From a virus (lineage: Duplodnaviria > Caudoviricetes): DNA of 64,000 bases. Positions within the stretch are counted from its first letter, which is position 1. Every line of letters starts with the position of its first letter. This document shows, in pieces, positions 4,230 through 63,218 of the stretch. The notes under the pieces are model-generated. The model saw only the letters and a list, made by a program, of their open reading frames with translations, made no database searches and was not told the DNA's origin. The stretch spans positions 81,488 to 145,487 of the IMG/VR virus record IMGVR_UViG_3300037067_007264, one strand, 5' to 3'. A program made the position numbers and the translations under genes.

Positions 4230-4889
4230 CTAATCTTCGAACTCGAGTCCAGCAACTTGATTGTCCTGAATATCTACTCTTATCGGCTTCTTGCAGAGGA
4301 TCACATTCTTGGGAGCGACCCATACGGCAAAGGAATTGCGGAGGGTGGTTTCTAAGGCCCCAAGGCCTCCAAGAACCTCAGGAGGTAGGTCAATTCCTGG
4401 TAGCTCACTGAGGAAGCTGTACTGGGCAACCCAGGGGAGGTCAACCAAAGAGCTCCACGCACACTCGTAGATGGATTCGGCAAGGGGGGTTATCCTGCTG
4501 GACCACAGGGAGTCTAACAAGGTGTTGTTCAAGGATTTGGTAATTGAATTGAGCAGCCTGTCAGAGAGTGAAAGCCAATAGATAGGCGATAACTCTATGG
4601 AATCTCGTAGAGCGTGGGTAAAGATCTGTATCCGACCGAGGCTCTTGTAGAAGGCTCGGCACTTCTCTGGGTTGGAAAACCACTTGACCTCGTATCCGGT
4701 GATGTCACTGACGTGAATAGCCCCGTTGTTTGGTAAGTTATCAATCAGATCGTGGATAGCTTCAGTGGCAAAGTCCACGTTGGTCTCAGTAGAAGTGGCG
4801 AATCTGAAGAAGTCTTGCCTGAAAGTGGCCAAGCGGCTGGCTTGTTGAGAGGTCAAAGAGTCAAGCTTCTTGGTGAACTCGTAGTACAT
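4230..4889 (-). CDS. Hypothetical protein
   Basis: Long ORF; GGTGTA (4901-4906, minus) lies 11 nt before ATG 4889. Confidence 0.65.
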   Translation of the reverse strand: MYYEFTKKLDSLTSQQASRLATFRQDFFRFATSTETNVDFATEAIHDLIDNLPNNGAIHVSDITGYEVKWFSNPEKCRAFYKSLGRIQIFTHALRDSIELSPIYWLSLSDRLLNSITKSLNNTLLDSLWSSRITPLAESIYECAWSSLVDLPWVAQYSFLSELPGIDLPPEVLGGLGALETTLRNSFAVWVAPKNVILCKKPIRVDIQDNQVAGLEFED

Positions 4890-5653
4890 TGGGAGCACCC
4901 TACACCGAGTGTGACAGTTTTGTCACCAAAAGATTGACAATCTGGTGTACACTGCTTCATGCCATTGACTGTCCGAAATCTTCTTGACCACCCAGAACGT
5001 AGGTCTGAACTATACCCTGAGCCGGATAATTGTGTTGAGTGTGGGCAACCGATCTCGGAGTTTGTCACTGGGCATGAGCCGATTGGCAAGAAACCCGCTC
5101 AAGAGCCAGAGGAAACGTGATCTACCTCATCCCGCCGGTACCGACTCAAGAACCCAAGTGGCGTATTCGAGCTGAATCAACCAAGCTATCCAGTTCCTTT
5201 ATCCTCCGTGATGAAGTAGCGAAGATTTTTTCTGATAATGGGGTTCCAGTCATCCCATTAGGTAAGCCCCCAAGTGGTGCCACCGAAGAAGCTTTGGTTG
5301 CTGCCATGGACGAGATAGACACTCGTCACATTAAACTGAGTAGACGGTTACTCAGCGAGCTGAGGTTCGAACTCCTAGGGGCTAGGTCTAGGATCCAATG
5401 GCCCCAAGTAATAATAGACTGCCGCCGAGCAGCAGTAGATGTTGTAGAGGCTCAGAATCGATACGAAGAGTTGCATGAGAAGGTAATGGAGTACGCCATG
5501 GATCAGTTAGGTCTCAATGAGCTAACCTGTATCCTAGTTGAAGGCCTTCACGAGTGTATCAAGAGCCCAACCCGGCAGTGCTTGTACGATGATGAAGAGG
5601 ATCCTAGCCACGATGATTGCCTCGTGTGCGGAGAGCCTGAAGAGCGGAAATGA

Positions 5654-8296: not shown

Positions 8297-9213
8297 AGTC
8301 TCGGGGTGGATATAAATGAAAACCTCAAGAAGCAACGTGAGCTTACCGCTAAACTTCTAGCTGAGCCTCTCGAAGGTGAGCCTCTCGAGTTGCTTGAGCT
8401 TGGTATTGAACTGGCTAGGTTAGTGACAACAGCAGATCAACACCTATCCGATGATGGAGACTACCCTGAAGCTTGGCTTAGTAAACCTAAACCACCAGCC
8501 CCCGATCCTTGGTGTGGGGGATCGGAGACGTAATGAAAGAGACGAGTGACTGCTAATGGAAGACAAAGAAGTAGAGATCTCATTAGATAGAAAAACTGAG
8601 ATCATCTTTAGGATGATGCAGAAGTGGGCACCTCGCTCGAGTGAAACGCTGGCCCAGGTGTTCCCAAATTGTGATTGGCCTGAGTCGATCCATAATTGCA
8701 ACCTACAAGAGTTCCTAACCACGGTCTTCAATGATAACCCGAAGGCGATCACTGAGAGAGGCATACCTTCAGCCGAAGCCTATGTGGGGGAGGTTAGGAA
8801 ACTTTTCTAGGGAATACCCTAGGAGAACCTTAGGCTGGCTATTGACATTCCTCATAAATTATGGTGCTATACGAGATTAGTAACCACTCGGATAGCTATG
8901 GGCGCTAGGTCAAAGAACACTTATAGTGTTAGGGCAACAGTTCAGGGTCAGTTTCGAGATCGGCAGATTGGGGTCCTTGGCGGGAAACCCTAAACGAAGC
9001 TGTCTTATCTTTTGTAGAGAAGTTGAAGAAACAAGGACAGGCAGATCGAATCCTGAAGTATCCAATGGTAGCTCGCAGGGCAACTATTGAGGATCAAATA
9101 GGGCATAACCTACCAATAGATGGTAACGGGGTTATTTACCGGCGCGATCTAAGTTTACAAGCTGGAATCTCATCCTTGCTCATAGCCCAAGGGTTGAACC
9201 TACCGGAGAATCA

Positions 9214-56327: not shown

Positions 56328-59300
56328 CCTTCAAGTACCACCTACTCTCTCATCTGTTGAATCCGACGCCAATAACCTATCTGTCACACCGACATAGGTA
56401 TCCTTCAAACCCCATCTACTCTCTCATCTGTTGAATCTGGTCGACTCGCCGACGCAGGGCTCGCCAACATAAGCCTTCAAGTACCACCAACTCTCTCACC
56501 TGTTGAATCACATCTTCGGGCGGCCAGTCCTGCTCAGCAGAATTCCTTCAAGTACCACCAACTCACTCATCTGTTGAATCCGGTGAAAGCACTTCTGGAT
56601 GACTCATTCATTGGGACCTTCAAGTACCACCAACTCACTCATCTATTGAATCGGTCCATTTGCAGACGCAACAGAGCGACAGTTAGGTCCTTCAAATACC
56701 ACCAACTCACTCATCTGTTGAATCAAAGCCTCCTAGAACGTGAGAACTGACGATTGCTCAATCCTTCAAAACCCACCAACTCTCCCATCTATTGAATCTA
56801 AGGGGCCGGATTTGTGTTCGTCATACCAATATTACCCTTCAAGTACCACCAACTCACTCATCTGTTGAATCCCACTCGGCTCTTCGAGAGGATGCTGAAC
56901 GGACTGGCATCCTTCAAACCCCACCAACTCTCACATCTGTTGAATCCCGATCTGAACGCTGCCGCTCCCGACCGACACTTTGCCAACATCCTTCAAACCC
57001 CACCAACTCTCACATCTGTTGAATCAACCCCGTGGATGACCCTGAGAAGCTCCATGTAAAGTGCCTTCAAGTACCACCAACTCTTTCATCTGTTGAATCA
57101 GGTCGATCACTTCGATCAGGACCATCTTGGCGAACCTTCAAGTACCACCAACTCTCTCATCTGTTGAATCCGTGAAGGACACCTGGATAGATCGCAACGG
57201 CGTCGAGCTCCTTCAAACCCCACCAACTCTCTCATCTGTTGAATTACGACAAGGATCTTGAAGTTACCTTATCGGCATTGCAACCTTCAAAACCCACCTA
57301 CTCACCCAGCTGTTGAATCAGGTCCTTTTCCGGGGGCATGACCTTGCTACACCGCCTTCAAAACCCACCTAACCCCTCATCTGTTGAATCAGACCAAGAC
57401 CAAGAAAGTTGATGACGCCGGCACGCCTTCAAGTACCACCTACTCTCTCATCTGTTGAATCTCTACAAGCTGCTCCACTCGGATTCCAAACAACCCAACC
57501 TTCAAACCCCACCAACTCTCTCATCTGTTGAATCCGGAGGGCTTCCTAGGTTTGGTGTGATTGATGCCAGTCCTTCAAAACCCACCAACTCACTCATCTG
57601 TTGAATCCGCGCGTAACCTGGGATGTTCTCGGACCCAGGAGGATCCTTCAAAACCCACCAACTCTCTCATCTGTTGAATCTCGATACGTTCGGGAAAAGC
57701 ACGGCAAGAGCTTCTGGCCTTCAAACCCCACCAACTCTCACATCTGTTGAATCGTCGAAAGCGTGTGCTCGAGTGGCATTCTGACGCGCCTTCAAACCCC
57801 ACCAACTCTCTCATCTGTTGAATCCTGCATTCGCGCCAGAGGCCTCGGAACCAGACTACTGAGCCTTCAAACCCCACCAACTCTCTCATCTGTTGAATCT
57901 CTACAAGCAAGCTCTGAACGGTGATCCGGTAACACCTTCAACCCCCACCTACTCTCTCATCTGTTGAATCTGCGGCAACTCAGACGTGCCACCCCGAGAC
58001 ATCAGTGCCCTTCAAGTACCACCTACTCTCTCATCTGTTGAATCCTCATCTATGGTCACCCCAAGTATGATCTCGTGGTCCTTCAACCCCCACCTACTCT
58101 CTCATCTGTTGAATCGGACACAGGGACTCCTAGAATCCACCTGCCCACCCCCTTCAACCCCCACCAACTCTCATCTGTTGAATCAAACCTCGTTCATTGG
58201 GGCCGACAGGATGGTGTCAGGCTCCTTCAACCCCCACCAACTCTCTCATCTGTTGAATCCTATATGACCCTCATTGCCGATTGGATGATCCCCTAACTCC
58301 TTCAACCCCCACCAACTCTCTCATCTGTTGAATCCTAGGGGGGGTTGGGTCTCCCTCGAGGAACTCCACATCCTTCAAACCCCACCTACTCTCTCATCTG
58401 TTGAATCAAAGCAAGAGTAACTGACGAAGAGCATCACCGCAGCCTTCAAACCCCACCTACTCTCTCATCTGTTGAATCGCCATTATAACAGTTGATATTG
58501 TACCGTCGTCCAGTAACCTTCAACCCCCACCAACTCTCTCATCTGTTGAATCTAGGGCTACTTCCTGAAGCCAAGCAATAATCTGGGCCTTCAAACCCCA
58601 CCTACTCTCTCATCTGTTGAATCAAAGTACAGGTTCCGACTGCGATCAAACTAAGATTCCTTCAAACCCCACCTACTCTCTCATCTGTTGAATCGGACCC
58701 TCAGGTGTTCACGAGTTCATCCATCTCAAGCCTTCAACCCCCACCTACTCTCTCATCTGTTGAATCATCGCGGGGATCATCTGGTAGTCAGAGGAGGAGC
58801 CAGCCCTTCAACCCCCACCTACTCTCTCATCTGTTGAATCGCTATGGGCTCGTCGAAGACGAGCAACAATCTGGTTGCCTTCAAACCCCACCTACTCTCT
58901 CATCTGTTGAATCCGGACGATTGGAATCAAGAACTAAGGGCTCATCTAACCTTCAACCCCCACCTACTCTCTCATCTGTTGAATCCAAAGACCCAATTGG
59001 GCCAACCCTCACCAAGGCGAACCTTCAACCCCCACCTACTCTCTCATCTGTTGAATCTTCAGCTGTAGTGGAATGGATTGTGGAACCGACGCTCCTTCAA
59101 ACCCCACCTACTCTCTCATCTGTTGAATCGGACGAGCATCAGAACGAGCATCTAGTCTAAGGTTGCCTTCAAACCCCACCTACTCTCTCATCTGTTGAAT
59201 CAGGGGTAGTGAAGCTTATTTCGGTGGTGACCAAGGCACCTTCAAACCCCACCTACTCTCTCATCTGTTGAATCGAGAGCTTGCTCGTAGGGATCATCAA

Positions 59301-59778
59301 CCACTACGGTTTCCTTCAAACCCCACCTACTCTCTCATCTGTTGAATCAGATTGCTCCTCGATTGACCTTTGAAGAATTCTCACCTTCAAACCCCACCTA
59401 CTCTCTCATCTGTTGAATCCTGAAAGAGCGCAAGGGGCGACCTACCCAAGGTGTTCCTTCAAACCCCACCTACTCTCTCATCTGTTGAATCGGGATACGG
59501 CCGAGCGCAAGCTGAGGCTGAAGTCAAAACCTTCAAACCCCACCTACTCTCTCATCTGTTGAATCGAGGCACTCGAGAGAGCTCGTAATGCCCTTCCGGA
59601 CCTTCAAACCCCACCTACTCTCTCATCTGTTGAATCCCTATCCCCTAACCTACCCAGCCCTGATTGATTCTCCTTCAAACCCCACCTACTCTCTCATCTG
59701 TTGAATCGGTGTGACTTGAGTTGCATGGTTTTGGTACTTCCTCCTTCAAACCCCACCTACTCTCTCATCTGTTGAATC
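56328..59778 (-). CRISPR. CRISPR array, 48 repeats / 47 spacers; repeat (crRNA sense) GATTCAACAGATGAGAGAGTAGGTGGGGTTTGAAGG, 36 nt
   Basis: Counted by hand; spacers about 35-43 nt; repeats uniform near 59778 and degenerate toward 56328, so the leader is on the right and transcription is on the minus strand, as for the cas gene. Confidence 0.98.
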
Positions 59779-60005
59779 CTCATCCATAGTGTACTAATCA
59801 ATTCAAGTACTTAGTGTGCTACTTGCGAGAGGGTGTCTAAGGCACCTTTTGAATCCCAAAATTTATGTAGGGAAGGAGCCAAGTGGTAAGACACCCTTTC
59901 TCGCTTTCTGCACTTAAAATTGTCAAAGATCACGGGTTTACCCACCGCGAGGAAAGCCTCGCGAGCGAGGTAAGGGTGAGATAAAGAACCCCACCCCTCG
60001 CAAAG
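59779..60005 (-). promoter_or_regulatory. CRISPR leader with IHF-like site, inverted repeat and boxA-like element
   Basis: ATTCAAGTACTTA (59801-59813; 1 mismatch to WATCARNNNNTTR); AGGGTGTCT/AGACACCCT IR (59830-59838 / 59889-59897); TGATCTTTGACAA on minus (59932-59920). Confidence 0.65.
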
Positions 60006-60668
60006 TCAAGCAGCCTTCTTCTCGTACTTGGCCAGTCGTTTTAGCAGGTCATTCCGTTCTTTTTTGAGGGCCTTGACTTCGTCCTCCAATTCACGGACCC
60101 TTTCTTCAGCCTCGTCAAGTTGAGTAGCAAGATTACTCTTTGGGATTCTGGGTACTTTGCTGATGAGACCATACTTCTTGCGGTAGGTGTGAATACGACC
60201 ACTAGCGGTGACCTCACTCATTGGAAACCTACGGGTTTCCATTCCCGGTTCAAGCTCCTCTTTGATGAACCTACTTCGATGACCCTCCGGTAAGCCAGCT
60301 ACTTTTGACAATACCTTGAATCCGTGGGTCTCACAGAGTTCAGGACCGAACTCTGTGAGTGCGGTCACACCGTAGCGATACCTCTTCACATCAGGGAGTG
60401 ATGTCTGATAGTAACTTAGCCAAGCATCGAAGGTGGCGCTGGGGACTGCTGACTTCTTCCAAAGGTTACTCTTTTCATAGGCTCGTAGGTAGGCTACAAG
60501 CCTCATCTCACCCTGGTCAGCATCGGTCTTCAAACCTCGGATAACATCCAGTACTTGTTCAGAGTCCGGAAAGTCTGTTGGTTTCAACTTGAGTATGGTC
60601 TTGACGATCTGGCCAGTATCACCCTTGATCTTGGAGGGGTCAATAAAGGTTACTTTTTTAGTTGGCAT
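60006..60668 (-). CDS. CRISPR-linked accessory protein (helical domain plus C-terminal coiled coil)
   Basis: Starts 9 nt after the cas stop with a GAGGT RBS; C-terminal heptads LATQLDEAEERVRELEDEVKALKKERNDLLKRL. Confidence 0.8.
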   Translation of the reverse strand: MPTKKVTFIDPSKIKGDTGQIVKTILKLKPTDFPDSEQVLDVIRGLKTDADQGEMRLVAYLRAYEKSNLWKKSAVPSATFDAWLSYYQTSLPDVKRYRYGVTALTEFGPELCETHGFKVLSKVAGLPEGHRSRFIKEELEPGMETRRFPMSEVTASGRIHTYRKKYGLISKVPRIPKSNLATQLDEAEERVRELEDEVKALKKERNDLLKRLAKYEKKAA

Positions 60669-60677
60669 CGGTTTACC

Positions 60678-62432
60678 TCATTCCGCTGCATCAGCGTCAG
60701 CATCATCATCGGGTGGATCACTTACAAGAGTAAGGTCGGTGAACTTGGTGTGTCTGTGAGTGTGCTCTGTGACTATATCGGTGAAATTCTGATCTACTTG
60801 AGCCAGGGTTTCTGGGTCATTCGCTAAAAGCAACTTGAACAGTCTCCAGGCCCTAAACAGGGTCTTCGGTGCTACGCACCCACATCCTGTTCTACACCAG
60901 ACTTCAGGAAAGCCCTCTACGGAGTGAGAGTCACATAGGGTTTTCACGCCACCGCACATAGGGCAGTTCAGAGACCCAGAGTGCTTGATCACCATGGTGC
61001 GAACACCGTGCTTCTTGCAAGCCCACGCTATCTTGTCTCGGAAGGTGCACCACGGGAATCTCCGCAATAGACGTTCTATTCTTCGATCCGGAGCATGAGG
61101 GACTGACTCCATATCGTCAATTCCGACGATAGACCCAATTGCTTTAGCATACCGAGCTATGTGAGAAGCTTGTTGCTCCATCCAGGTCTTGACCCGATCA
61201 GCCTCTTGACCCTCAACAACTGCCAAGGACAGCCGGAACCTCTTCTGTCCGTGACCCCTTCCACCCTTGCCGAGGAAAGGCAGGTGCCGCGCTCTAGCGG
61301 ATCGCATAGAATCATACTTCTGTTTGAGATGTATGAACCCAGCGGAATCTATCCCTTTCGGAAGTACCCCTCCAGCCCCGGTGTACTTTCCACGAAGGTA
61401 TCGACCTTCATTGGAGTAGACCATTGCCAGGTCGTTGAGGGCTGGGGTTACTACAAGAGCAGTACTAACCTGGGTCGGCTCGGGTCTTGGCCTCTTGAAA
61501 CCAAGCTTGAATACCCACTTACCCTCATCAAGGACCACCCGACCTTGGGTTCTCTTGTACCCATTCGTTTCCTGTAAGCACCGCTTGAGGGTAGCCCAAT
61601 CGGAACCGCCTCGAACTTGAATCCGTACGGTAAGGGGTGGAACCCGTTGGCCCTTACGAGCCCCTGCAAGCATTCGAAGGCTGAGCAGGACAATCTCTTT
61701 AGGTAGCTCTTTTGGGACATTCCGATTGCTACTTTTAAGACGGTCTCGATACTCGTCAGCCTTGATAATCTCGATACTGAAACAGTCAGCCTTGATAGGG
61801 AATCCGGTTACCTTGGGCCACGGAGGTGACTTCTCTTGGGACTCCTTTGACTCCCAATTATGATACCTATTCGCGTAATCTCGACTGGCGGTAGCCACTA
61901 TACTTGATGCCGGACGGGTTACCTTGAGGATAGGATCATCGAGACCATCGAGGTACTCACTCATCGCTTCGTTGCAGATCTTGTATGCTGCAGACTCTAA
62001 GTTTCCCTCGATTGGGTTCTGAAACTGCCGACGGTAGACAGCTTGAAGGCCCATGGTGAGTGTTCGAGATACCCCGTAGAACTGATTCTTGATAGCTGAG
62101 ACTTCCTCTTTAGAGGAGTCGGAGAATACCACTGGAAGTGTCAATGCCCCTGGCAAGTTGAACAGCGCTTCCTCGAGACCTTCGATGCTCCGAGATTTGA
62201 TAACCTCAAGAGTGGTACGACCAAGCGTGTTCCTTCCGTACTTGGCCGTCGGGCATCCATTGTACATGAATACCGAGACTTTTGGTTGCTTCTTGGGTTT
62301 TAGTCCGAGTTGATCTGCTGTCTGATGGTATTTTTCAAGCAGTTTGTAGGCTTCGGTGCTAGCCCATTCCTTGTCCTCGTCAGTGAGTTCAGGTTTTTCT
62401 TTTGGGTTTGGATCCTGTTTCTTTGCGGCCAC
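60678..62432 (-). CDS. cas12: Type V CRISPR effector, Cas12f/TnpB-like, predicted nuclease-dead
   Basis: Adjacent to the array; GRGHGQKR, RRFPWCTFRDKIAWACKKHGV and the Zn finger CPMCG...C...CG follow the Cas12f/TnpB C-terminal layout; RuvC-I LVVTPAL (D->T), RuvC-II VGIDDM (E->D), RuvC-III PKTLFRA (D->T). Confidence 0.85.
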   Translation of the reverse strand: MAAKKQDPNPKEKPELTDEDKEWASTEAYKLLEKYHQTADQLGLKPKKQPKVSVFMYNGCPTAKYGRNTLGRTTLEVIKSRSIEGLEEALFNLPGALTLPVVFSDSSKEEVSAIKNQFYGVSRTLTMGLQAVYRRQFQNPIEGNLESAAYKICNEAMSEYLDGLDDPILKVTRPASSIVATASRDYANRYHNWESKESQEKSPPWPKVTGFPIKADCFSIEIIKADEYRDRLKSSNRNVPKELPKEIVLLSLRMLAGARKGQRVPPLTVRIQVRGGSDWATLKRCLQETNGYKRTQGRVVLDEGKWVFKLGFKRPRPEPTQVSTALVVTPALNDLAMVYSNEGRYLRGKYTGAGGVLPKGIDSAGFIHLKQKYDSMRSARARHLPFLGKGGRGHGQKRFRLSLAVVEGQEADRVKTWMEQQASHIARYAKAIGSIVGIDDMESVPHAPDRRIERLLRRFPWCTFRDKIAWACKKHGVRTMVIKHSGSLNCPMCGGVKTLCDSHSVEGFPEVWCRTGCGCVAPKTLFRAWRLFKLLLANDPETLAQVDQNFTDIVTEHTHRHTKFTDLTLVSDPPDDDADADAAE

Positions 62433-62444
62433 ACATTCTCCTTA

Positions 62445-62614
62445 CCTTCCTGGCACCCACTCTAACTGACTTACGTTCGAGTAGTTGCCACTAATCGTCT
62501 ACCTAGGCTTGGTCGAGTGGGTGGGGCCGTACCTCAGTTGGTTCGGCGGTTAGCGAGTGGACGTATCCCTCAGCTTTAGGGGTGAACCCTGTCGTGACAG
62601 GTTGAAGGTCCCCT
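62445..62614 (-). ncRNA. Candidate tracrRNA (split anti-repeat) plus repeat mimic in the cas 5' leader
   Basis: Anti-repeat 1 CCTTCAACC (62608-62600); anti-repeat 2 CCCCACCCACTC (62526-62515, 11/12 to the repeat); repeat mimic AGAGTGGGTG-CCAG-GAAGG (62463-62445); promoter TTGTCA-18-TAGGTT (62650-62621). Confidence 0.65.
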
Positions 62615-63218
62615 GATAAAAACCTAGCCTTGATAGACGGTCAGTGACAACTACTCTCACTTTCAAGATCAGTTCTCTCATGTCCATACGCCTATGTCAA
62701 TCGAAAACATGGAAAAAGAAATATTAGTCGGACCGGTGTAGTGACCGGGTATGGTCGACCCAAGACTGTCCTCGAAAGACGAGAAGGCTCTCCAAGACAT
62801 GATTGACCGAGGTCAGCTACCTGGGCACACGATCGAAAATGGAAGGCTCGTGTGCCCTCGACAGGATGAATACGGACGCCGGCACCTCACTGAAGAAGAG
62901 ATGACCGCCCATCGCGAGCGGGTACTCAAGATGAAGTTTGATGAGGATTGACTTCGCCCTGGTTCTCGCGAGGATAGGTCAGGCCCGTGATGATCCCCAT
63001 CCCTGGGACTTGACCGTAGTCACGTATCGGAGGGTTCATAGCTTGAGCCAGGTACATGGCGTGACTTGCCGCCTTATTGAGAGCTACCCCAGCTTCAGGA
63101 ACCCCAGGGAACTCGTCACAAGCTCGTCTGAGGGTCGCGGCATAGGTCACAAGAGCCATGCTGACAAAAGGCCGGTCTTCTTCAGGTATCACAAAGTCGT
63201 GAGGGTTTGGCATACTGC

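Follow-up and report, generated by a model that had tools for sequence, protein, structure and literature searches.

Type V-F Cas12f1 effectors (As, Sp, Os, Cn and Un1) are the closest described relatives, in both fold and sequence, of a 584-residue protein encoded by a virus of the Caudoviricetes (IMG/VR record IMGVR_UViG_3300037067_007264). The gene lies in the 64,000-nt stretch of DNA analysed here (the window; positions 81,488–145,487 of the record), in a minus-strand locus that also contains a leader resembling a trans-activating CRISPR RNA (tracrRNA), a 220-residue partner gene and a 48-repeat CRISPR array. The locus is read here, with somewhat better than even confidence, as a phage-borne, Cas12f-derived and tracr-dependent CRISPR system that silences rival phages by binding rather than cutting, with the partner assisting. 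The original prediction, made by a model from the letters of the window, described the same locus and proposed RNA-guided binding without cutting; its observation is confirmed and its interpretation is partly supported.

Comparison with described systems

Like Cas12f1, the effector contains a GHG motif and a zinc-finger/TNB region. The likeness extends to pairing between the 3′ part of the repeat and a long structured tracrRNA, here a predicted one, and possibly to a T-rich 5′ protospacer-adjacent motif (PAM), here seen at one site. The locus differs from Cas12f1 systems in the loss of the RuvC-I and RuvC-III aspartates, in effector size (584 against 400–530 residues, with a longer N-terminal half), in a partner gene that looks obligate and in its huge-phage host.

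Several nuclease-dead relatives have been described. Cas12k of the type V-K CRISPR-associated transposons (CAST) is likewise RuvC-dead and tracr-dependent, but the present locus has a long array, shows no close fold or sequence match to Cas12k, and no Tn7-like genes were found with it. TldR proteins derive from TnpB and use a single omega-RNA-like guide without an array, whereas an array and a tracr-like RNA are both present here. Cas12m of type V-M is another compact Cas12. It is tracr-independent, unlike the apparently tracr-dependent system described here, and is not known to have a partner protein. Its structures are distant fold matches of the effector (E 7e-9 to 3e-7, ranks 23–34), and no Cas12m was found by sequence. 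Cas12m protects through DNA binding and transcription silencing and leaves double-stranded DNA uncut (PMC10442227, PMC11013384).

Hoffmann et al. 2026 (PMC13472631) describe dCas12f-sigmaE and a truncated bacterial dCas12f cluster beside CRISPR arrays. These proteins, like the present effector, are Cas12f-derived, nuclease-dead, RNA-guided DNA binders with helical regulator proteins, although DNA binding is a prediction here. The dCas12f proteins of that study are C-terminally truncated (365-aa chain, 9n9c), come from Bacteroidota, work with single guides and are rpoE-linked, whereas the present effector has an intact C terminus and zinc finger, a 48-repeat array and no linked sigma gene. The one sigma-70-family gene of the contig is unlinked, lying about 70 kb from the locus and outside the window, and the partner contains no sigma Pfam domain. 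A close-family profile searched against PDB sequences gave no link between the effector and dCas12f.

CasPhi (Cas12j) is carried by huge phages with adaptation genes not nearby and is thought to act against competitors (Al-Shayeb et al. 2020, PMC7162821). The present locus resembles it in huge-phage carriage, in that no nearby adaptation genes were found, and in a presumed action on competing phages. CasPhi is an active nuclease without tracr or partner, whereas the effector described here is RuvC-dead and its array is unusually long for a phage.

The group named V-U24 has a noncanonical RuvC-I site and an associated protein with a helix-turn-helix (HTH) domain (Altae-Tran et al. 2023, PNAS, PMC10691335). 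A noncanonical RuvC-I and a partner are also found here; the two are compared by description, and the HTH likeness of the partner consists of weak ParB/KorB-like matches. The accessible portion of that text reports no function, target, tracr or phage link for V-U24, and no further paper was found that uses the name in that sense. The locus probably belongs to this uncharacterised group, to judge by the description in that portion, and is probably already catalogued yet uncharacterised. The proposal that it fits none of the known nuclease-dead systems cleanly goes too far: the locus is distinct from Cas12k, Cas12m, TldR and dCas12f-sigmaE, but it is no orphan, as it falls in a large clade without the RuvC-I aspartate (described below) and matches V-U24 as far as that group is described in the accessible text.

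Organization of the locus

The elements follow in the minus-strand order TTGACA box (62700–62695), leader of about 230 nt, 584-aa open reading frame (ORF), 220-aa ORF, 227-nt leader and 48-repeat array. The coordinates below agree with the single minus-strand unit outlined in the original prediction.

62672–62700, minus strand: promoter-like TTGACA-N17-GAGAAC 5′ of the tracr-like leader, read from sequence
62480–62665, minus strand: tracr-like structured leader RNA with a long terminal closing stem and a conserved core (62500–62650), from conservation and fold prediction
62604–62608, minus strand: second anti-repeat CCTTC, complement of the repeat 3′ end GAAGG, in an internal loop
62515–62526, minus strand: anti-repeat CCCCACCCACTC, 11/12 complementary to repeat segment GAGTAGGTGGGG, unpaired in the predicted fold
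62445–62462, minus strand: degenerate repeat half GAGTGGGTGCCAGGAAGG, directly 5′ of the effector Shine-Dalgarno sequence and GTG start
60678–62432, minus strand: effector gene, 584 aa, GTG start, Cas12f fold
61446–61448, minus strand: RuvC-I position, T329
61116–61118, minus strand: RuvC-II position, D439
60861–60863, minus strand: RuvC-III position, T524
within the effector gene, minus strand: zinc finger C490/C493/C513/C517
60006–60668, minus strand: partner gene, 220 aa, with a helical N-terminal domain and a C-terminal coiled coil (residues 177–219)
59779–60005, minus strand: array leader, 227 nt, with a promoter-like TTGACA (59926–59921) followed by 17 nt and CGAGAA, read from sequence
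56328–59778, minus strand: CRISPR array, 48 repeats of 36 nt and 48 unique spacers
59202–59238, minus strand: spacer 8, 37/37 match to an HU-like gene of another huge phage

Structure of the effector and its RuvC site

In its AlphaFold2 model (predicted local distance difference test, pLDDT, 75), the effector has the compact, TnpB-like architecture of type V-F, including a RuvC domain and a zinc-finger/TNB insert. Foldseek with this model places AsCas12f first (E 1e-16), followed by SpCas12f, OsCas12f, CnCas12f, TnpB, dCas12f and Cas12m. The close-family profile detects SpCas12f1 among PDB sequences at 1.5e-11. The motifs LVVTPAL, VGIDDM and PKTLFRA, a GHG motif, a CxxC...CxxxC zinc finger and the helix before it are all found, the last three in agreement with the Cas12f/TnpB C-terminal scaffold that had been proposed.

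The RuvC-I position was assigned through a chain of alignments in which VVTPA of the effector corresponds to VHRG of its relatives and VHRG to VDMG of OsCas12f; T329 therefore occupies the position of the catalytic aspartate. The triad reads T329/D439/T524 instead of the intact D-E-D of type V-F. All three positions had been predicted to be altered. This holds for RuvC-I and RuvC-III, but the RuvC-II change is a conservative replacement of glutamate by aspartate, with D439 unchanged throughout the close family; two of the three acidic residues are therefore lost rather than three. Among the nearest kin (P0001–P0006) the RuvC-III residue is T, V, N or I, the pattern expected once selection on the site is lost, and aspartate is retained in P0007–P0011. 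Judged from sequence and model, the effector most likely binds DNA without standard RuvC cleavage.

An exhaustive profile search over 1.84 billion cluster representatives recovers 292 relatives at E ≤ 1e-3 and 32 at E ≤ 1e-30, so that the clade comprises at least 292 representatives of clusters formed at 50% identity. None of the 140 relatives that were aligned contains the RuvC-I aspartate; the position is His in 70 and Arg in 39, and hydrophobic or Thr in the remainder. A midpoint-rooted FastTree phylogeny, the rooting of which is uncertain, puts the window effector in a 19-sequence clade (support 0.989) with a hydrophobic residue or Thr at RuvC-I. This clade is nested in a 47-member Arg-type clade of about 575-aa proteins (support 0.995), separate from the shorter His-type majority.

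The His-type relatives L019, L020 and L021 have H-E-D at the RuvC positions, are about 470 aa long and retain a partner homologue of about 186 aa. Tandem Repeats Finder detects no CRISPR array on L019 or L021. In L021, a 719-bp non-coding gap between partner and effector leaves room for a guide RNA.

The partner protein

The partner gene starts 9 nt past the effector stop. In 11/11 distinct loci (L006, L007, L008/L009, L010, L012/L013, L014, L015, L016, L019, L020 and L021), a homologue is encoded no more than about 1 kb from the effector, and a JGI contig known only by its gene table also carries a partner gene beside the effector. The homologues are 186–241 aa long (hmmsearch E 1e-91 to 2e-15), and the gene is kept even in relatives that match just the C-terminal half of the effector. 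The partner is conserved, and it is dedicated to the effector as had been anticipated from the window.

The partner model is confident (pLDDT 85.6), is all-helical and ends in a 43-residue coiled coil, through which the protein is probably a dimer. Pfam matches are confined to coiled-coil families. Fold searches give no significant match in PDB (Foldseek), BFVD, VIA as a whole (best Z 6.4) or the ESM Atlas (TM 0.48–0.56), and a word-based sequence search returns close kin only. Weak leads recur to the ParB and KorB DNA-binding domains (Z 6.0 and 5.5 over 96 residues), DUF222, a ParB_N-family protein and DUF3102. A predicted complex of effector and partner scores 0.00, gives no verdict and is uninformative either way.

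The CRISPR array

The array comprises 47 full-length 36-nt repeats and one copy with a 2-nt deletion. The minus-strand repeat sequence is GATTCAACAGATGAGAGAGTAGGTGGGGTTTGAAGG. The spacers are all unique and 35–39 nt long in 47/48 cases, the other being 43 nt. Shuffled controls yield 0 chance matches. Repeat copies are perfect at the leader end, near 59778, and increasingly degenerate toward 56328, and this gradient establishes which way the array is transcribed. The 20 nt at the 3′ end of the repeat are conserved from locus to locus, whereas the 5′ 16 nt are variable.

The related locus L008 contains an array of only three repeats. Solitary repeat 3′ halves and the last array repeat lie there directly 5′ of the ribosome-binding sites or start codons of downstream genes, so placed that the mRNA leaders look like carriers of a CRISPR RNA (crRNA) handle.

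L008:3387–3408, 4496–4517, 5388–5409 and 8345–8381: solitary repeat halves, and the last array repeat, before gene starts

The tracr-like leader RNA

The DNA of the leader is more conserved than the effector it precedes. RNAalifold on four distinct sequences predicts 38 pairs, 12 of which show compensatory changes. The 11/12 complementarity of the anti-repeat is equalled by 0/300 shuffled leaders, and the CCTTC segment is invariant in five loci. Between the window and L008, a G in the repeat is replaced by A and a C in the tracr by U at the paired position. These features support an upstream tracr-like RNA, as proposed in the original prediction. An Rfam search finds no family for the leader. 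RNAcofold of leader and repeat shows no gain over shuffled repeats, a method that cannot place intermolecular pairs inside closed loops.

GAGTGGGTGCCAGGAAGG begins with 9 nt that complement the anti-repeat perfectly, suggesting either a natural single-guide-like leader or autoregulation. A similar GAAGG element occurs in L007, is weaker in L006 and is absent in L008.

The same TTGACA-N17-(C)GAGAA(C) arrangement precedes both proposed transcription units (62672–62700 and 59898–59926, minus strand). The position of a TTGAC(A/C) box upstream of the leader is kept in L006, L007 and L008. A sigma-70 consensus scan calls neither the tracr-leader promoter nor the array-leader promoter; the arrangement may be a shared phage promoter type that such a scan overlooks.

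A spacer target in another huge phage

Spacer 8 matches a protospacer on JGI contig Ga0172381_10003014 (L017:8005–8041) within an HU-like gene (PF00216, 5.8e-10), and the guide is antisense to the mRNA of that gene. The same protospacer is present in IMG/VR UViG_3300035208_005871 (L018:11059–11095), where it is not within any array. On the spacer-sense strand its 5′ flank reads ...GCCAGTTT (...AGTTT), with TTT adjacent to the protospacer. Many type V systems have a T-rich PAM at this 5′ position. Because the final bases of the repeat are AAGG and not TTT, the array would not be a target of its own guides.

The target contig is phage-like, with a GIY-YIG homing endonuclease and 49% G+C, and its IMG/VR record is classed as viral (12.5 kb, CheckV completeness 2%). 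PTRFER-type C-terminal tags occur on at least six ORFs of L017 and also on unrelated proteins of the window phage (54749–55210). The phage-like content and the shared tags point to a rival phage of the same broad kind. The suggestion that competing phages are targeted thereby gains one exact protospacer with a T-rich 5′ flank.

No spacer matches were found in the phage's own contig, the related loci, or GenBank phages or plasmids. Exact-prefix scans, which covered 7/48 spacers, found nothing for spacers 1–5 and 9 in IMG/VR or for spacer 1 in JGI metagenomes.

The window phage (54397–54587) and the target phage (L017:11404–11591) also share, at 86% identity, a short element of about 190 bp, and a related copy is located elsewhere in the window contig (G000:C1:57895–58083).

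Phage context

The window forms the last 64 kb of a 145,487-bp contig without a terminal repeat. The contig is a linear IMG/VR virus record that CheckV rates as 28% complete; the whole genome would accordingly measure about 0.5 Mb, that of a very large phage. PHROG matches on the contig, to a tail-like protein, a PurZ-like adenylosuccinate synthetase, NAMPT, a CCA-adding enzyme and a ParB-like protein, are consistent with a large phage. Relatives sit on phage-like contigs of 66–473 kb, and every examined locus looks phage-like. The array repeat and close homologues are absent from 185,579 GTDB species genomes (one genome per species). The phage-borne character of the system, first proposed from the window, is supported by all of these data.

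Neither Cas1, Cas4, rve nor TniQ is matched across the whole contig, which extends the original report that no such genes lie in the window. Cas1 was not found in two related viral records either, and the flanks of the related loci are free of all these genes. That the phage lacks adaptation genes is not thereby proven, because the window ends where the contig ends and the phage is only about 28% complete.

The PurZ-like adenylosuccinate synthetase (phrog_1211, 2.4e-74), NAMPT and CCA-adding enzyme are encoded at the contig start (L001:12850–14256, L001:10123–11511 and L003:12150–13499). A PurZ would hint at 2-aminoadenine DNA; the match does not distinguish PurZ from PurA.

Proposed mechanism and alternatives

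In the favoured reading, the locus is probably transcribed as two minus-strand units, one comprising the tracr leader, effector and partner and the other the array from its own leader. Each repeat would base-pair, through its conserved 3′ 20 nt, with the exposed tracr segments CCCCACCCACTC and CCTTC. The effector would bind the tracr-repeat duplex and scan DNA for a T-rich 5′ PAM, TTT in the single case seen. It most likely forms a stable R-loop and makes no cut, because the first and third acidic residues of the RuvC site are missing. The bound complex would block transcription or replication of the rival phage in a shared cell. More tentatively, the co-translated partner may bind DNA by its ParB/KorB-like helical domain and then stabilise, extend or bridge the roadblock. 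New spacers might be gained via host Cas1-Cas2 or via genes on the unsequenced 72% of the genome.

Several observations weigh against this reading. In the close-family alignment D439 is invariant and D440 nearly so. Most relatives keep the RuvC-II glutamate (101/140) and the RuvC-III aspartate (112/140), with His or Arg at RuvC-I, so clade members may still have some non-standard activity, RNA processing for example. For the partner, no structural match is significant. One of the 48 spacers has been placed, so that the PAM and any strand rule rest on n = 1.

A further reading, possible though held at low confidence, makes the effector and partner an obligate two-protein machine. The R-loop of the dead Cas12f at a TTT-flanked site would load the dimeric ParB/KorB-like partner to spread on, bridge or clamp DNA, and the rival huge phage would be silenced uncut. 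Some lineages would also read repeat halves in mRNA leaders, as in L008 and the effector leader, for regulation of phage genes.

It is unlikely that the partner is the true effector arm. In such a system the dead Cas12f would deliver the partner, which would recruit a host or phage factor (nuclease, helicase or RNA polymerase) or act as a transcription factor, leading to degradation or activation, as in dCas12f-sigmaE. The strict conservation of the partner beside the effector throughout the clade, even where no array is visible, and the tight coupling of the genes, with 9-nt gaps or overlaps, fit such a role. However, the partner has coiled-coil matches but no enzymatic or sigma-factor Pfam domain, and its weak fold matches point to DNA-binding helical domains.

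The retained D439 and D440 raise the question of residual catalysis. The effector might still cut if its active site has been rebuilt, say from D439/D440 together with D334 or some other residue, or it might target RNA; either is doubtful. The H/R-E-D pattern of the wider clade suggests a pocket still under selection, and the sole known guide, being antisense to the target mRNA, would suit an RNA target. Against residual cutting, D334 is Ser in P0009–P0011, the RuvC-III position varies freely in the subclade of the window, and the lack of the RuvC-I aspartate is general among the aligned relatives.

The degenerate repeat half before the effector start codon and the solitary repeat halves before several gene starts in L008 could instead belong to a regulator of the phage's own or host genes, with autoregulation through the repeat-like leader element. 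TldR and dCas12f systems provide precedents. That such regulation, rather than an attack on competitors, is the main function is quite improbable: an array this long, with 48 unique spacers, is what immunity systems typically have, 0 spacers match the phage's own 145 kb, one exactly matches a rival phage, and solitary repeat halves are not in excess in the window phage's genome.

Almost no credence can be given to a Cas12k-like guide module of a CAST with Tns genes past the contig end, a reading rejected here. In its favour, the effector is RuvC-dead, the window ends with the contig and the repeat outline GATTCAAC...GGGTTTGAAGG resembles V-K repeats. Type V-K loci have tnsB, tnsC and tniQ adjacent, but rve and TniQ are unmatched in 145 kb, the flanks of related loci listed with genes contain no transposase-like gene, the top hits by fold or by sequence include no Cas12k structure, and V-K arrays are the shortest among type V (PMC10691335), against 48 repeats here.

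Implications

The one placed spacer shows huge phages targeting one another. If the favoured reading of binding without cutting is true, the locus would be a phage-borne addition to the few natural nuclease-dead CRISPR effectors (Cas12k, Cas12m, dCas12f and TldR), with a conserved partner protein that has no recognised fold or role. The clade to which it belongs is large, with its at least 292 representatives, and experimentally untouched. The effector would then be a naturally cleavage-free, compact, programmable DNA binder, and its partner may reveal a new route from binding to silencing.

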